Of a DNA stretch of 30,079 bases, positions 2,374 through 30,079 are shown piece by piece. The stretch is from a virus: positions 1-30,079 of IMG/VR virus record IMGVR_UViG_3300045988_012809. One strand, given 5' to 3'. The notes below the pieces were generated by a model. That model had not been told where the DNA came from and made no database searches. It was given only the letters and a program-made list of their open reading frames with translations. Made by a program: the position numbers and the translations under genes. Each line of letters starts with the position of its first letter. Within the stretch, counting starts at the first letter, position 1.

Positions 2374-2703
2374 ATGCGCAAGCAAAACAAAATCAAAACA
2401 GTAATCAACGGTCAAGAAGTCACCGTGGAACAAGACAGTCAGACCGGCCAGTTCTACACCCGGCAAACCGTCGGCAACATCCCAGTTGACTACACGACCA
2501 TCAGCGACAGCGTAACCATCGGCCAGTGCATCAAATACTGGCGGATACGCCACGGGTACTCACAAGCGGAACTAGCCGAACGAATCGGCGTAGCCGGCCA
2601 GAACGTCATCGCCATGTGGGAAAACGGACGCCGCAAACCACAAAAACAATACCGGTTGCGACTAGCCAAACAACTCGGCTATGACATTCTGGCGAAAGAC
2701 TAG
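2374..2703 (+). CDS. XRE-family HTH transcriptional regulator (Cro/CI-like)
   Basis: C-terminal HTH_3 signature IKYWRIRHGYSQAELAERIGVAGQNVIAMWENGRRKP. SD AGGAAGGTG lies upstream. Confidence 0.8.
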   Translation: MRKQNKIKTVINGQEVTVEQDSQTGQFYTRQTVGNIPVDYTTISDSVTIGQCIKYWRIRHGYSQAELAERIGVAGQNVIAMWENGRRKPQKQYRLRLAKQLGYDILAKD

Positions 2704-3364: not shown

Positions 3365-3373
3365 GCAAAGAAT

Positions 3374-3408
3374 AGCCCGGCGCCAGTCATCAAGACCAGT
3401 GCCGGGCT
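3374..3408. terminator. Imperfect GC-rich hairpin between convergent genes (candidate bidirectional terminator)
   Basis: agcccggc(gccagtc)atcaa(gaccagt)gccgggct. The outer 8 bp pair perfectly. On the minus strand it is followed by ATTCTTTGCTT. Confidence 0.45.
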
Positions 3409-3457
3409 AATTCATTCGGTCATCACACCATCGCTCGAAAGGAGCAACACCAGTGTA

Positions 3458-23902: not shown

Positions 23903-24139
23903 TTATCTTCGTTTCGTTGTTCCTAGTTTTTTGCTGTTGCTCATGTTTATGCCGCCCCAGATGCCTTGCAATGGGTAGCTGTTTATCACGGCATGTTTCG
24001 CAGCATATCGTTTGCATTCGTGTATCACCGGGCATGTGGAGCAGGCTTTAAGGGCTAATCGTTCCTCAATCCGTGTGGTTGGGAAAAACAGGTCAGGGTC
24101 CATGTCACGGCAAACGGCCTTGTTGCGCCAGTCGCTCAA
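23903..24139 (-). CDS. whiB: WhiB-family Fe-S transcription factor
   Basis: Four Cys (C10, C33, C36, C42), DPDLFFP, CSTCPVIHEC and GIWGG. Confidence 0.9.
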   Translation of the reverse strand: MSDWRNKAVCRDMDPDLFFPTTRIEERLALKACSTCPVIHECKRYAAKHAVINSYPLQGIWGGINMSNSKKLGTTKRR

Positions 24140-25949: not shown

Positions 25950-26395
25950 CAGAACACGTCCCATTCGTTGTCGGTCTGGTTGGATGAGTCGGTAGGGTCG
26001 AACTGGCCTGTTCCCGGCCATTGAGTGCCGGACTGCTGAGTCTGCTGGTTTTTCGCCTTGAGCAGGGCGAGACTAATGGTCGCGTGTTTGATGGTGAAGT
26101 CGGTGCGCGGCTGACCATGATTGTCGGTGCCGGTCTTCCATTTCAAGACTCCCTCGACTCGTACCGGTGTGCCCTTGCGCAACATGCGTCCGTAGGTTTC
26201 GGCAAGTCTCGGGTCATATTCGAAGATGGTTGCCCACATGGTGTCGTGGTCTACCCACTGTTTCGTGTTTTTGTCCATGTGGCCGCCTGTGGCGGCGACT
26301 CGGATAAGCATGTAGGGGGTGCCGTCGCTGGTCTGTTTGCGTTCGGGGTCTGCCGCCACGCGTGCGAGCGGTATCGTGATTCGGGGATCATTCAT
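25949..26395 (-). CDS. ssb: Single-stranded DNA-binding protein
   Basis: OB-fold-like N-terminus (ITIPLARVAADPE...GTPVRVEGVLKWKT), a Q/G/T-rich linker and an acidic tip DNEWDVF. Confidence 0.85.
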   Translation of the reverse strand: MNDPRITIPLARVAADPERKQTSDGTPYMLIRVAATGGHMDKNTKQWVDHDTMWATIFEYDPRLAETYGRMLRKGTPVRVEGVLKWKTGTDNHGQPRTDFTIKHATISLALLKAKNQQTQQSGTQWPGTGQFDPTDSSNQTDNEWDVF

Positions 26396-26570
26396 TGTTG
26401 ATTGTTTCTCCTATTGGTAGTGGTGTGATGTTGGGGTTGAAGTAGTAGCGGTTGCCTACCTTGATGTATGGCAGTCGTTTCTCTCGGCAGTATCTGCGGA
26501 CTGTTTGGATGTTGAGGTGCCAGCGTTCCGCGTATTGTTCCGTTGTTGCGGTGTAGTCTTTAGCGTTCAT
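26388..26570 (-). CDS. Excisionase/MerR-like HTH DNA-binding protein; first gene of the leftward operon
   Basis: AERWHLNIQTVRRYCREKRLPYIKVGNRYYF matches the HTH_17 / Xis-type pattern. Confidence 0.65.
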   Translation of the reverse strand: MNAKDYTATTEQYAERWHLNIQTVRRYCREKRLPYIKVGNRYYFNPNITPLPIGETINNE

Positions 26571-26576
26571 GATTTA

Positions 26577-26605
26577 AATATACATCAGATTGCGTTTGAT
26601 TGCAA
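26577..26605 (-). promoter_or_regulatory. Leftward promoter P-L: TTGCAA -17- TATATT, predicted leaderless
   Basis: -35 at 26605-26600 and -10 at 26582-26577. The A of the ATG at 26570 is the 7th nt after the -10 hexamer. Confidence 0.6.
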
Positions 26606-26628
26606 GTGGTGTCGCCGTGATATATAAT
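26600..26628 (+). promoter_or_regulatory. Rightward promoter P-R: TTGCAA -17- TATAAT
   Basis: It uses the same palindromic hexamer at 26600-26605 as its -35. The -10 is at 26623-26628. Confidence 0.6.
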
Positions 26629-26685
26629 AAATATGTATGCAAGGATAACGTTTAAATAAAAATCAAAGACAGTCAGAATAAAGTA

Positions 26686-26717
26686 AGCGCCTCCCTCGAG
26701 AGAATGAAGGAGGCGCT
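26686..26717. promoter_or_regulatory. 9-bp GC-rich hairpin in the replication gene leader
   Basis: agcgcctcc (14-nt loop) ggaggcgct. A T-rich tract follows only on the minus strand. Confidence 0.5.
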
Positions 26718-26735
26718 AACAGAAAGGATGGAAAC

Positions 26736-27617
26736 GTGTCCGATACGAGTATAGCACAGAACCCGGGTTTTTCCATGCTGCCGAATTGGGCGGTGGACGA
26801 TGACCGGTTGGGCGGCTACGACCTGCTGGTGTACATGGCGTTGATACGCCACGCCGACAACACCGGCGTCTGCTGGCCCAGCTTGGAGAGGCTGGCAAAG
26901 ATCGCGCGTTGCTCGCAGCCCACGGTGTCCAAGAGCCTCAACGTGCTCGAACAATTGGGGTACATCCGACGGGTCAAGTCCGATGGCAGGGCCAACCGGT
27001 ATCACGTCTCGCTGTGGAAGCCCACCCCAAAACCTGGTTATGACCATGCATCGACCCCAAAACCTGCTTTTGACCCCCCAAAACCTGCTTTTGACCCACC
27101 CCAAAACCTGCTTTTGACTAACAATACCCAAGAGAACAAAACCCAAGAACAATACTCGCGCGGAGAAGAAAAAATCACAGTCTCCTGCCATTCGGGGGAT
27201 ACTCTCAAGGCGCTTATGGGATTGTGGCCTAAGAAATGCAGGGTGTCCAACGAATTCATTCAGTGCTTCAATCAGGCGTTCGACGAGGTTGGTGCCGACG
27301 CGCTTATGAGGGCGGCGAAACGTTTCGTGGAATCGTGCGAGGGTACGCCGTTGCAGTATGTGCGGACTCTGCCCGTGTGGCTGGCTGACGTGGTTAATTG
27401 GAGGGGGCAGAAGCAGGAGAACCGCAGTGAAGCGCAGTTGTCGAATTGGATGGCCCGTAGGCTTCCTGATTCTATGGCCGCGGACGTGGAGATTGTTCTG
27501 CGGGCGAGACGCGCATATTGGGGTGGCCAAGGCGGTTTGATGGCGCTGGAACGGGAGTTCTTTCCGGACGGCACCGAACACGCCTCGATCCGACATACAA
27601 GGGAGCAACAGAGATGA
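26736..27617 (+). CDS. Replication initiator / replisome organiser with an N-terminal winged HTH (HTH_36-like)
   Basis: FSMLPNWAVDDDRLGGYDLLVYMALIRHADNTGVCWPSLERLAKIARCSQPTVSKSLNVLEQLGYIRR. GTG start. Contains internal DNA iterons. Confidence 0.7.
   Translation: MSDTSIAQNPGFSMLPNWAVDDDRLGGYDLLVYMALIRHADNTGVCWPSLERLAKIARCSQPTVSKSLNVLEQLGYIRRVKSDGRANRYHVSLWKPTPKPGYDHASTPKPAFDPPKPAFDPPQNLLLTNNTQENKTQEQYSRGEEKITVSCHSGDTLKALMGLWPKKCRVSNEFIQCFNQAFDEVGADALMRAAKRFVESCEGTPLQYVRTLPVWLADVVNWRGQKQENRSEAQLSNWMARRLPDSMAADVEIVLRARRAYWGGQGGLMALEREFFPDGTEHASIRHTREQQR
27025..27118 (+). repeat. Four direct 20-nt repeats CCCCAAAACCTG(C/G)TT(T/A)TGAC (iteron-like, candidate origin)
   Basis: Copies at 27025, 27055, 27076 and 27099. 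The last three are identical. Each contains CAAAA-n5-TTTTG dyad symmetry. Confidence 0.65.
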
Positions 27618-28001: not shown

Positions 28002-28030
28002 GTCCTAGCGTCCTAGCCATACGTCCTAGC
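28002..28030 (+). repeat. Three exact GTCCTAGC octamers
   Basis: Copies at 28002-28009, 28010-28017 and 28023-28030. A degenerate copy ACGTCCGATTAGG lies at 28031-28043. Confidence 0.8.
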
Positions 28031-28073: not shown

Positions 28074-28112
28074 TTGCCTGACCCCACCATATGTGATATA
28101 TTATATATATCA
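28074..28112 (+). promoter_or_regulatory. Promoter P-B: TTGCCT -17- TGaTATATT plus conserved dyad
   Basis: -35 at 28074-28079, extended -10 at 28094-28102, 21-nt motif tgtgatatattatatatatca at 28092-28112. Confidence 0.6.
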
Positions 28113-28154: not shown

Positions 28155-28460
28155 ATGCGTAAAACACAATACTATGCCACTGCTCTCAAGGCAGCCGAAG
28201 CAGTACCGGTCATCACAAAAAAGCGTGCGGGAATCGAGGGCGTGGAATACGACATCGAGGAATACACAACGGCGGATGCGTATGATGATCCGTTTCCGCC
28301 GGCCGCGACGTGGTGCCCAGCATGGTTTGCCTATGGCAAGAGCTGGAAGACTCTTAAGGGTGCGCAACGCTTTTTGGCATTGCAGCTCCAATGTCACGGT
28401 AAGGGCCTTGCGGATTATGCGAGGCAGTTCCGCATCGTCGCCCGTAAGAGCGAGGCGTGA
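28155..28460 (+). CDS. Hypothetical protein
   Basis: SD GAGGAG lies 7 nt before the ATG. No recognisable motif. Confidence 0.65.
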   Translation: MRKTQYYATALKAAEAVPVITKKRAGIEGVEYDIEEYTTADAYDDPFPPAATWCPAWFAYGKSWKTLKGAQRFLALQLQCHGKGLADYARQFRIVARKSEA

Positions 28461-28521
28461 AGGCTGCCGAGATTGACGCTACCGCCCCCCCCAAGCAATG
28501 CCGAGAAATACAGACATCAGT

Positions 28522-28560
28522 TTGCAACATCACACAACATGTGATATACTTTATATATCA
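28522..28560 (+). promoter_or_regulatory. Promoter P-C: TTGCAA -17- TGaTATACT plus conserved dyad
   Basis: -35 at 28522-28527, extended -10 at 28542-28550, motif tgtgatatactttatatatca at 28540-28560. Confidence 0.6.
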
Positions 28561-28583
28561 TCACACTATCGGAAAGGAACCTT

Positions 28584-29210
28584 GTGATGGCAACCAACAA
28601 CCTAAGTAACAAGTTCATGCGGGTACTCAACGAAGTCCCCAACTTCGTCACCGACGAAACCGCGCAGGCAGGCAAAAAGACTTACAAGTACCTCAACCTC
28701 GCCACGATACTCAAGACCATCAAACCGGTTTTCGAGAAGTACGGGCTGGCATTCAGCCAGCGCGTCACGTTCGACAACACGGGAGAAGCGCGACAGGTCA
28801 TCGGAACAGTAGAAACCATCATATTCGACGATGAAGAACAGATGGTGGCCTGCTCCTACCCGTTCTTCGTGACCGGCGACCCCCAGCAGGTCGGCAGCGC
28901 AATCACCTACGCACGCCGCTACAGTCTCTACGCGGTATTGGGCATTTTCCCGGACAAGGACGATGACGGCGCGTATGCCAAACAACAATACGAAACCGCA
29001 GACCGTACCATCAGCGTCAACCAGTACGCCGATCTTGTCAAGGCGATGAACGCACACAACATCCCATCCGAGTCGCGCGGCGAATACATCAACAGCATCC
29101 TGAACCGTCAGGTCAGGGGATGGAAGGAACTCACGCAAACCGATTTCCGGAATCTGATGGACGGACTCACGGAAACCGATTTCCGGAATCTGATGAACTC
29201 AGCCAACTGA
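28584..29210 (+). CDS. erf: ERF-family single-strand annealing protein
   Basis: KYLNLATILKTIKPVFEKYGL...QQVGSAITYARRYSLYAVLGIFPDKDDDG (ERF hallmark). Starts at GTG 28584 or ATG 28587. Confidence 0.85.
   Translation: MMATNNLSNKFMRVLNEVPNFVTDETAQAGKKTYKYLNLATILKTIKPVFEKYGLAFSQRVTFDNTGEARQVIGTVETIIFDDEEQMVACSYPFFVTGDPQQVGSAITYARRYSLYAVLGIFPDKDDDGAYAKQQYETADRTISVNQYADLVKAMNAHNIPSESRGEYINSILNRQVRGWKELTQTDFRNLMDGLTETDFRNLMNSAN
29129..29195 (+). repeat. Tandem duplication with 36-nt period (31-nt cores, one mismatch) inside the erf 3' end
   Basis: actcacgcaaaccgatttccggaatctgatg at 29129-29159 and actcacggaaaccgatttccggaatctgatg at 29165-29195. They encode LTQTDFRNLMDG / LTETDFRNLMNS. Confidence 0.9.
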
Positions 29211-29999: not shown

Positions 30000-30039
30000 T
30001 TGCTCAACCCCACCACATTGTGATATATTATATATATCA
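30000..30039 (+). promoter_or_regulatory. Promoter P-A: TTGCTC -18- TGaTATATT plus conserved dyad; drives the exonuclease operon across the junction
   Basis: -35 at 30000-30005, extended -10 at 30021-30029, motif tgtgatatattatatatatca at 30019-30039. This motif is identical to the P-B copy. Confidence 0.55.
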
Positions 30040-30079
30040 GGCATGGTGCTTGATATATGACCGAAGGAGTCGAACACAA
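30025..30079. repeat. Right copy of the 55-nt terminal overlap (identical to 1-55)
   Basis: Same 55-mer as nt 1-55. It duplicates the 5' end of the exonuclease gene and part of its promoter. Confidence 0.95.

Follow-up and report, generated by a model that had tools for sequence, protein, structure and literature searches.

A predicted divergent promoter pair sharing one palindromic -35 hexamer in an uncultured phage of gut actinobacteria

The shared -35 element and its two promoters

The window analysed here, a stretch of 30,079 nucleotides (nt) comprising positions 1 to 30,079 of the IMG/VR virus record IMGVR_UViG_3300045988_012809, comes from an uncultured siphovirus of a human-gut actinobacterium, about 30 kb in size and circularly assembled. 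The subject of this report is a 165-nt intergenic region of this genome from which two gene blocks diverge. On its left side, on the minus strand, lies the gene of an Xis-like winged helix-turn-helix (HTH) protein of 60 amino acids (aa) (26388..26570; Pfam HTH_17, E=1.9e-7), and on its right side, on the plus strand, lies the gene of a replication initiator (26736..27617; HTH_36, DnaD/O-like). A first-pass annotation of this DNA had placed between them two near-consensus promoters with a common -35 hexamer. Its positions for this hexamer, for both -10 elements, for the leftward ATG and for two copies of GATTGC are all correct, and the promoter pair itself is well supported by the consensus matches and the conservation described below.

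The shared -35 element is the palindrome TTGCAA (26600-26605), which can be read on both strands. Read rightward, it is followed after a 17-nt spacer by TATAAT (26623-26628), forming the predicted promoter P_R with 10 of 12 matches to the consensus. Read leftward, it is followed, again after 17 nt, by TATATT on the minus strand (26582..26577), forming the predicted promoter P_L with 9 of 12 matches. Both have hexamers near TTGACA and TATAAT and a spacer within 16-18 nt, as is characteristic of sigma-70/sigma-A promoters, and both were recovered independently by a consensus scan, in which P_R is one of three 10/12 sites in the whole genome. A distance of 40 bp separates the two -10 elements, and one of about 65 bp the predicted transcription start sites (TSSs); the TSS of P_R is predicted around 26635, which would give the initiator mRNA a leader of about 100 nt. 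As noted earlier, the intergenic region is AT-rich, its GC content being 0.37 over the 165 nt and 0.30 over positions 26571-26685 against a genome average of 0.54. The -35 of P_R also has counterparts in the other rightward promoters of the phage, where TTGCnn stands at the same, correct distance upstream of four further -10 elements.

The likelihood of such a layout arising by chance was assessed with dinucleotide shuffles of the whole window (300) and of the AT-rich intergenic region alone (20,000). A back-to-back pair with a shared -35 appeared in none of the 300 whole-window shuffles and in 3 of the 20,000 local ones. A minus-strand promoter placed so that its transcript would start at the HTH start codon, as described below, was found in 98 local shuffles (0.5%), and the two features together in 0 of 20,000. 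Chance is therefore excluded as an explanation of the layout.

For the analysis of conservation, 71 related loci were fetched and 65 distinct intergenic sequences, about 10-20% diverged, were aligned. The -35 hexamer TTGCAA is invariant in all 65 relatives, and so is the longer ATTGCAA (26599-26605). The leftward -10 stands at 17 nt in every relative, as TATATT in 60, TATACT in four and TATAGT in one, with the TAnnnT positions always kept. The rightward -10 is TAnAAT at 16-17 nt in all 65; of these, 63 have TATAAT at 17 nt, one has it at 16 nt, and the remaining one has TACAAT. The spacers are variable, each occurring in 31 distinct versions, and that of P_R falls into two unrelated sequence types, GTGGTGTCGCCGTGA (the type of the window) and GTAGCATGTGCTAGC (the majority type). 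When single columns of the alignment are considered, 17 of the 18 hexamer columns are at least 97.5% conserved, compared with 61 of the 165 intergenic columns (hypergeometric P=1.2e-7). Conserved runs of four or more columns coincide with TATAC (left -10), ATTGCAA (-35), TATAATA (right -10) and ATAT at the expected rightward start; the only other such runs in the region are both stem ends of a hairpin and the GAAA of a ribosome-binding site, both on the initiator side. Positions 26583-26591 in the P_L spacer and the (TA)-rich tract at 26620-26634 are conserved as well, the former unusually so. This pattern supports the presence of two functional promoters, being the footprint that such promoters would be expected to leave.

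Start of the leftward transcript and features on the initiator side

Every one of the 65 relatives has ATG as the start codon of the HTH gene (in the window CAT at 26568-26570 on the plus strand). Counting from the end of the leftward -10, the A of this codon is base 7 in 60 relatives and base 8 in five. The 12 nt on the 5' side of the ATG, TATATTTAAATC, hold the -10 itself and an in-frame TAA, which sits two codons upstream of the ATG, and they contain no purine-rich Shine-Dalgarno (SD) sequence; SD matches of 4-9 nt precede the majority of the other phage genes, and the HTH gene has none. A start further downstream in the gene is impossible because the Pfam HTH_17 match already begins at residue 9 of the protein, and independent gene callers give the same 60-aa product for the open reading frame (ORF) in the relatives. 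The lack of an SD and the in-frame stop two codons before the ATG lend good support to the prediction that the HTH mRNA is leaderless and starts at the A of its ATG (26570). The proposal of a leaderless leftward mRNA made in the first-pass annotation thus fits the -10 located 6-7 nt from an invariant ATG, the missing SD and the upstream TAA, and it fits a like arrangement in the phage BlindBasel1, discussed below. The invariance of the HTH start codon contrasts with that of the initiator, whose mRNA would carry a leader and whose start codon is GTG in the window and, among the 65 relatives, ATG in 37 and GTG in 28.

Leaderless mRNAs occur in mycobacteria, which belong to the Actinobacteria, and the arrangement described here resembles the leaderless mRNAs of Actinobacteria in having a TAnnnT -10 element 6-7 nt before the AUG start and no SD; it differs in that it is predicted from sequence. 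Leaderless starts account for 15% of the TSSs in Bifidobacterium pseudolongum (PMC4782308), and the mapped promoters of Bifidobacterium breve have the canonical TTGACA/TATAAT hexamers with an optimum spacer of 17 bp (PMC5746004). The HTH protein shows weak similarity to lambda Xis, and a PHROGs search with it found nothing. Two related loci, L002 and L003, carry a 9-bp tandem duplication (TTTAGCGTA) at the start of the HTH gene, which adds three N-terminal residues (MYAKYAKDY...) and leaves the distance between the -10 and the ATG undisturbed.

A more distant comparison is offered by BlindBasel1 (MT006235, locus L137), a phage of honey-bee Bifidobacterium asteroides. It contains an unannotated HTH ORF of 56 aa on the minus strand (28286-28456), which is 32% identical to the HTH protein of the window (pairwise E=3e-8) and whose first ATG follows an extended -10, TGtTATAGT, beginning at the 7th base. 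A rightward promoter, TTGCAA-17-TATACT, is present at 29074, and a GC-rich stretch of about 600 bp (28500-29070), apparently non-coding, separates it from the HTH ORF.

On the initiator side of the region, the SD AGAAAGGA (26721-26728) precedes the GTG at 26736-26738. Gene calls for the initiator differ: JGI starts it at Met14 (26775; 280 aa, P0001), and ENA gives a protein of 293 aa. We favour the start at 26736, because the SD AGAAAGGA and codons 2-13 are conserved. The best 120 database matches to the initiator are all 78-100% identical to it.

Upstream of this SD lies the hairpin mentioned above. It belongs to a predicted leftward intrinsic terminator (26676..26717, minus strand), with a 12-bp stem (26717..26686) containing eight GC pairs and followed by the T-rich tail TACTTTATTC; a GC-rich stem-loop with a U-rich tract, the signature of intrinsic termination, is thus present in the leftward sense. 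The hairpin (26686-26717) is the best-scoring terminator of the region and scores on the minus strand. Seven of its pairs are invariant, one covaries (C-G in 54 sequences, U-A in 5, U-G in 3), and the loop is free to vary. Many of the pairs are of the G-U kind in the minus-strand RNA, where the plus strand would have A-C mismatches. Of 62 sequences, 58 fold more stably as the minus strand (-20.2 vs -16.7 kcal/mol, p=2e-11), and 47 keep the T-rich tail. Because of the stabler minus-strand fold and the conserved tail, the hairpin is read from its sequence as a leftward terminator upstream of P_L. A role as a rightward attenuator was considered and rejected, as no plus-strand U-tract follows the hairpin and the plus-strand fold is the weaker one. 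With a terminator located upstream of P_L, transcripts of the leftward operon would have to begin between 26685 and 26570, and in this interval P_L is the only conserved candidate for a leftward promoter.

Within the initiator gene, a putative antisense promoter, P_as, occupies codons 5-14 on the minus strand (26748..26775). It consists of an extended -10, TGcTATACT (26756..26748), and a weak -35, TGGAAA (26775..26770), with a predicted TSS around 26741. The extended -10 overlies codons 5-7 and lies 30 nt upstream of the terminator in the leftward sense. TATAnT is kept in 63 of the 65 relatives (codon 5), and codon 6 is the rare ATA in all of them. Codon 7 is NCA in all 65, N being G in 43, A in 18, T in three and C in one; the amino acid thus changes and the wobble A remains constant, and since this A never changes, the TG of the extended -10 is preserved. 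We regard this conservation as suggestive of a promoter signal. The first-pass annotation had missed both the conserved terminator and the putative antisense promoter between P_R and the initiator gene.

Together, P_as and the terminator predict an antisense RNA of about 65 nt (~26741..26676, minus strand). It has a predicted folding energy of -27.4 kcal/mol (z=-5.96), and its single-stranded 5' tail carries CCAUCCUUUCU, which is complementary to the SD (26721-26728) and the start codon (26736-26738) of the initiator. It is probable, as judged from these elements, that P_as and the terminator yield a countertranscript over the SD and start codon of the initiator. RNAII of the plasmid pMV158 is a countertranscript that covers the translation start of repB. 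The predicted RNA is of the same type, in that a single-stranded 5' tail directed against the SD and start codon of a replication gene is followed by a single terminator hairpin; it differs in that it is predicted from sequence and belongs to a phage and not to a rolling-circle plasmid. If real, it would add a plasmid-like layer of replication control to a phage.

Genome arms, host and other promoters

Bases 1-55 of the window are identical to bases 30025-30079 (55 nt), which shows that the assembly is circular and about 30,024 bp long. The leftward block extends over about 23 kb on the minus strand (26570 -> 3458). It encodes the HTH_17 protein, SSB, small proteins, WhiB, a RusA fusion and a ParB-like protein, and continues with the large terminase, portal, capsid, tape measure, Dit and a GH25-LysM lysin. 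Because the assembly is circular, the rightward arm runs on the plus strand from 26736 through the junction to about 3364, and it encodes the HTH_36/DnaD/O-like initiator, ERF, a YqaJ exonuclease and an XRE-type HTH protein. The earlier assignment of replication and recombination to one arm agrees with the initiator, ERF and YqaJ genes of the rightward arm; it is incomplete in that the leftward block too holds genes of this kind, namely SSB and RusA. An integrase was not found among the genes of the window.

The convergent junction of the two arms (~3373-3410) holds a GC-rich hairpin (AGCCCGGC...GCCGGGCT) that has a T-rich tail on each strand and is likely a bidirectional terminator; the loop limit of the terminator scan caused it to be missed. 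We had considered that the terminator at 26717 might serve against read-through of the late operon round the circle; this is unlikely, as the convergent junction has a hairpin of its own.

Three direct repeats of about 22 bp (ACCCCAAAACCTGCTTTTGACC, 27054-27118) and two 15-bp repeats (27120-27148) are located inside the initiator gene at a local dip in GC content. By analogy with lambda O, these repeats are probably the iterons of an origin.

Two further candidate regulators are encoded besides the HTH_17 protein. The WhiB-family gene (23903-24139, minus strand; PF02467, E=7.5e-16) lies inside the leftward operon. WhiB-family proteins bind region 4 of sigma-A, the domain that reads the -35. 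The XRE/Cro-type HTH_3 gene (2374-2703, plus strand; E=9e-11) is located in the rightward arm.

The other rightward promoters of the phage form a family that the first-pass annotation had overlooked. The palindrome TGATAT-N7-ATATCA occurs at 28093-28112, 28541-28560, 30020-30039 and 2333-2352, where it overlies the extended -10 and the start site of four rightward promoters with TTGCnn or TTGACG 13-14 nt upstream; its left half coincides with TGn plus the TAT of the -10. The chance expectation is 0 matches, and each related locus has 2-5 copies. A half-degenerate copy is present at 26617-26636. The palindrome is likely to be an operator. The promoter of the XRE gene itself (2314-2342) carries the palindrome, which makes the XRE protein the natural candidate for its binding. 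In the same arm, GTCCTAGC occurs three times at 28002-28030, just upstream of the promoter at 28074.

The close relatives of the phage come from human-gut metagenomes. Megablast of the region against cultured phages gave no DNA-level match, and an Rfam search of the whole window matched no family. At the protein level the portal is 47% identical to those of BlindBasel1 and BlindUri1, both phages of B. asteroides from honey bees, and the nearest cellular homologues of the lysin are mostly from Collinsella and in some cases from Bifidobacteriaceae. These two signals differ, the portal pointing to Bifidobacterium phages and the lysin to Collinsella and Bifidobacteriaceae. Because of the lysin homologues, the WhiB gene and a portal related to those of Bifidobacterium phages, placement of the host in the gut Actinomycetota is supported, with Collinsella or Bifidobacteriaceae as candidates. 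The actinobacterial link which the first reading had drawn from the leaderless start alone is in agreement with these three genes.

Proposed working of the region and known systems

We consider it likely that the region is the central transcription control region of the phage, in which a leaderless P_L and a P_R share TTGCAA, complemented on the initiator side by the terminator and the countertranscript. Both promoters would be read by a housekeeping sigma factor of the sigma-A/sigma-70 type. From P_L (TTGCAA-17-TATATT), transcription would start at the A of the HTH ATG and give a leaderless mRNA heading the 23-kb leftward operon; from P_R (TTGCAA-17-TATAAT), it would start on the opposite strand, at a distance of about 65 bp, and give an mRNA for the initiator with a leader of about 100 nt. 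Since one hexamer cannot hold two sigma region-4 domains and the two footprints would coincide in their upstream halves, polymerase at one promoter would exclude polymerase at the other, leaving room for a single enzyme at any moment. Such mutually exclusive binding is plausible on structural grounds. Initiations would thereby be partitioned between the two arms, and exclusion alone would not make a switch. The countertranscript would pair with the SD and start codon of the initiator, and the terminator would keep antisense transcription out of P_L.

Several observations weigh against this reading or parts of it. The conservation test is supportive rather than conclusive, as the relatives are 10-20% diverged and the conservation may partly reflect shared ancestry. 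The (TA)n tract around the -10 of P_R could also fire leftward. In shared -10 bidirectional promoters little competition between polymerases is seen at basal activity (PMC12825309). The -35 of P_as is poor, and the low third-position variability at P_as is matched by 6 of 78 comparable windows. A distance of about 600 bp separates the two promoters of BlindBasel1, which implies that sharing of the -35 is not required for function; the sharing may therefore be a compaction specific to the clade of our phage.

The claim that competition for one hexamer constitutes a minimal genetic switch is not supported. Competition only partitions polymerase and provides no bistability; published overlapping promoters compete markedly only with raised activity or a regulator (PMC12825309, PMC3167631), the shared -10 class in particular only with raised activity or an activator (PMC12825309), and switching models for overlapping promoters need a differential regulator (PMC3167631; pLS20, PMC4207663). 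A bistable or temporal switch, flipping transcription from the replication arm to the early/late operon or back, would accordingly have to combine exclusion with a regulator, be it the HTH product, XRE or WhiB on sigma region 4, acting at GATTGC or another operator. The overlap of the promoters is in line with this possibility, as are the three candidate regulators encoded (HTH_17, XRE HTH_3, WhiB), the unusual conservation of 26583-26591 in the P_L spacer and the precedent of pLS20 Pc/Pr, where overlapping divergent promoters can switch under a differential regulator (PMC4207663; model in PMC3167631). However, the two GATTGC repeats (26588-26593 and 26598-26603) earlier suggested as an operator fail as such, the upstream copy being GATTGC in the window only (1 of 65) and GATTAT or GATTGT elsewhere. 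No conserved palindrome or direct repeat was found over 26570-26640 in the 65 relatives, so the conserved regulator repeats over the promoters which a switch with an operator calls for are missing. The P_R spacer occurs in two unrelated types, against an invariant recognition region in the HTH protein, and TGATAT-N7-ATATCA, which marks the other rightward promoters, is represented here by a half-site only, and only in relatives of the window type. We thus consider a switch of this kind unlikely. Two related ideas were also rejected: an ATC-N-GAT pseudo-palindrome in the P_L spacer is not kept in the ATTATAT variants, and a coupling of the P_R spacer type to the HTH protein is not seen, its recognition region being invariant across both types (residues 10 and 40 alone vary with the spacer type, as plain phylogeny could explain).

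It could also be supposed that only one of the two promoters is used, TATATT being conserved for another reason and the HTH operon being transcribed with a leader, either from the (TA)n tract at the P_R -10 or by antisense read-through. Symmetric AT-rich -10 regions are often bidirectional (bioRxiv 10.1101/2020.01.31.928960), the tract at 26620-26634 is (TA)-rich and conserved, and leadered translation without an SD exists. Against this stand the near-consensus pair with 17-nt spacing and the exact leaderless distance in 65 of 65 relatives, a placement reached in 0.5% of local shuffles, and the same -10-to-ATG distance found independently in BlindBasel1. Moreover, a leftward start at the P_R -10 would lack an acceptable -35, and the strong conserved terminator would block read-through from P_as, which makes the use of a single promoter decidedly unlikely. 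Most improbable of all is that ATTGCAA is mainly a protein-binding or replication site, recognized by the initiator or the Xis-like protein in an origin-like region, with an incidental likeness to a -35. The AT-rich region does adjoin the initiator gene, and A26599 is invariant too, extending the conserved block to 7 bp. However, the iterons (27054-27118) are situated within the initiator gene and have an unrelated sequence, TTGCnn stands at the correct distance before four other -10s in the genome and before that of BlindBasel1, and the same hexamer with 17/17 spacing recurs in unrelated cassettes with SDs after both -10s.

These cassettes came from an exact-pattern scan of IMG/VR with ANTATA-N17-TTGCAA-N17-TATAAT, which gave at least 120 matches, as against 39 stretches with TGTACA and 23 with AAGCTT, two composition-matched palindromic controls. 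Among the matches listed, 19 sites belong to the phage's own clade and 92 are other distinct sites (mean GC 0.37). SD-like motifs are present on both flanks in 30 of these 92 other sites among the matches listed, compared with 0.6 expected, with a peak 6 nt after each -10. An ORF is callable on both flanks in 21 sites among the matches listed. One side mostly encodes an RHH_3 protein of about 52 aa and the opposite side TnpB (IS605 OrfB), a GIY-YIG (SegE-like) or a zinc-finger protein. The RHH cassettes are found in low-GC phage contigs (loci L143-L262, e.g. L198:356, L153:2079, L179:6168 and L169:981), and the sequence around their TTGCAA is often palindromic (e.g. GGACTTGCAAGTCC). They share with our promoter region the order -10, 17 nt, TTGCAA, 17 nt, -10 between divergent genes; they differ in having unrelated genes and low GC, and in that both mRNAs apparently start at an SD 6 nt after the -10 and are not leaderless. 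As the same geometry is found in these cassettes, the shared -35 design occurs in at least two unrelated families of phage elements, in which it has been either re-invented or spread.

It is tempting to extend this to a general statement, namely that shared -35 bidirectional promoters are a distinct, recurrent class of compact phage control element, in which sigma region 4 would read a palindromic TTGCAA in both orientations and a -10 would stand 17 nt off on either side, and which here would set the ratio of initiator to leaderless regulator and late operon and be tuned by the countertranscript and possibly by WhiB. We regard this as rather doubtful at present; if true, a WhiB-like protein could act on both promoters through a single shared hexamer. 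A paper that treats bidirectional promoters with a shared -35 as a class was not found. For annotation of this phage group, the analysis provides rules concerning the leaderless first leftward gene, the missed HTH gene of BlindBasel1 and the start codon of the initiator.

Divergent promoters that overlap are already familiar, as are leaderless early genes, and the layout described here is a compact variant of the former and not a proven switch. In lambda, P_R and P_RM have separate -35 regions and start sites 82 bp apart, with CI/Cro operators between and over them; here no operator was found over the core in the 65 relatives. With lambda, with Pc/Pr of pLS20 (PMC4207663) and with the overlapping promoters of E. 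coli (PMC3167631), the region has in common the opposite orientation, the exclusion of one promoter by polymerase at the other, predicted here, and the position at the head of divergent regulatory and structural operons in mobile elements. In pLS20 the -35 of each promoter falls on the -10 of its partner; here, by contrast, one palindromic -35 is shared with 17/17 spacing. The bidirectional class described so far shares the -10, with TSSs 7-25 bp apart (mode 18; bioRxiv 10.1101/2020.01.31.928960). As in those promoters (Warman et al.; NAR 2026, PMC12825309), one symmetric element serves both strands; however, the element shared here is the -35 and the start sites are about 65 bp apart, so that the defining feature of the class is absent. 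What is offered by this phage is an unusually clean case, in which one palindromic hexamer is the -35 of two near-consensus promoters and is invariant in a large and abundant group of gut phages. A minimal template of about 70 bp for polymerase partitioning with only the -35 shared would complement the work on shared -10 promoters.

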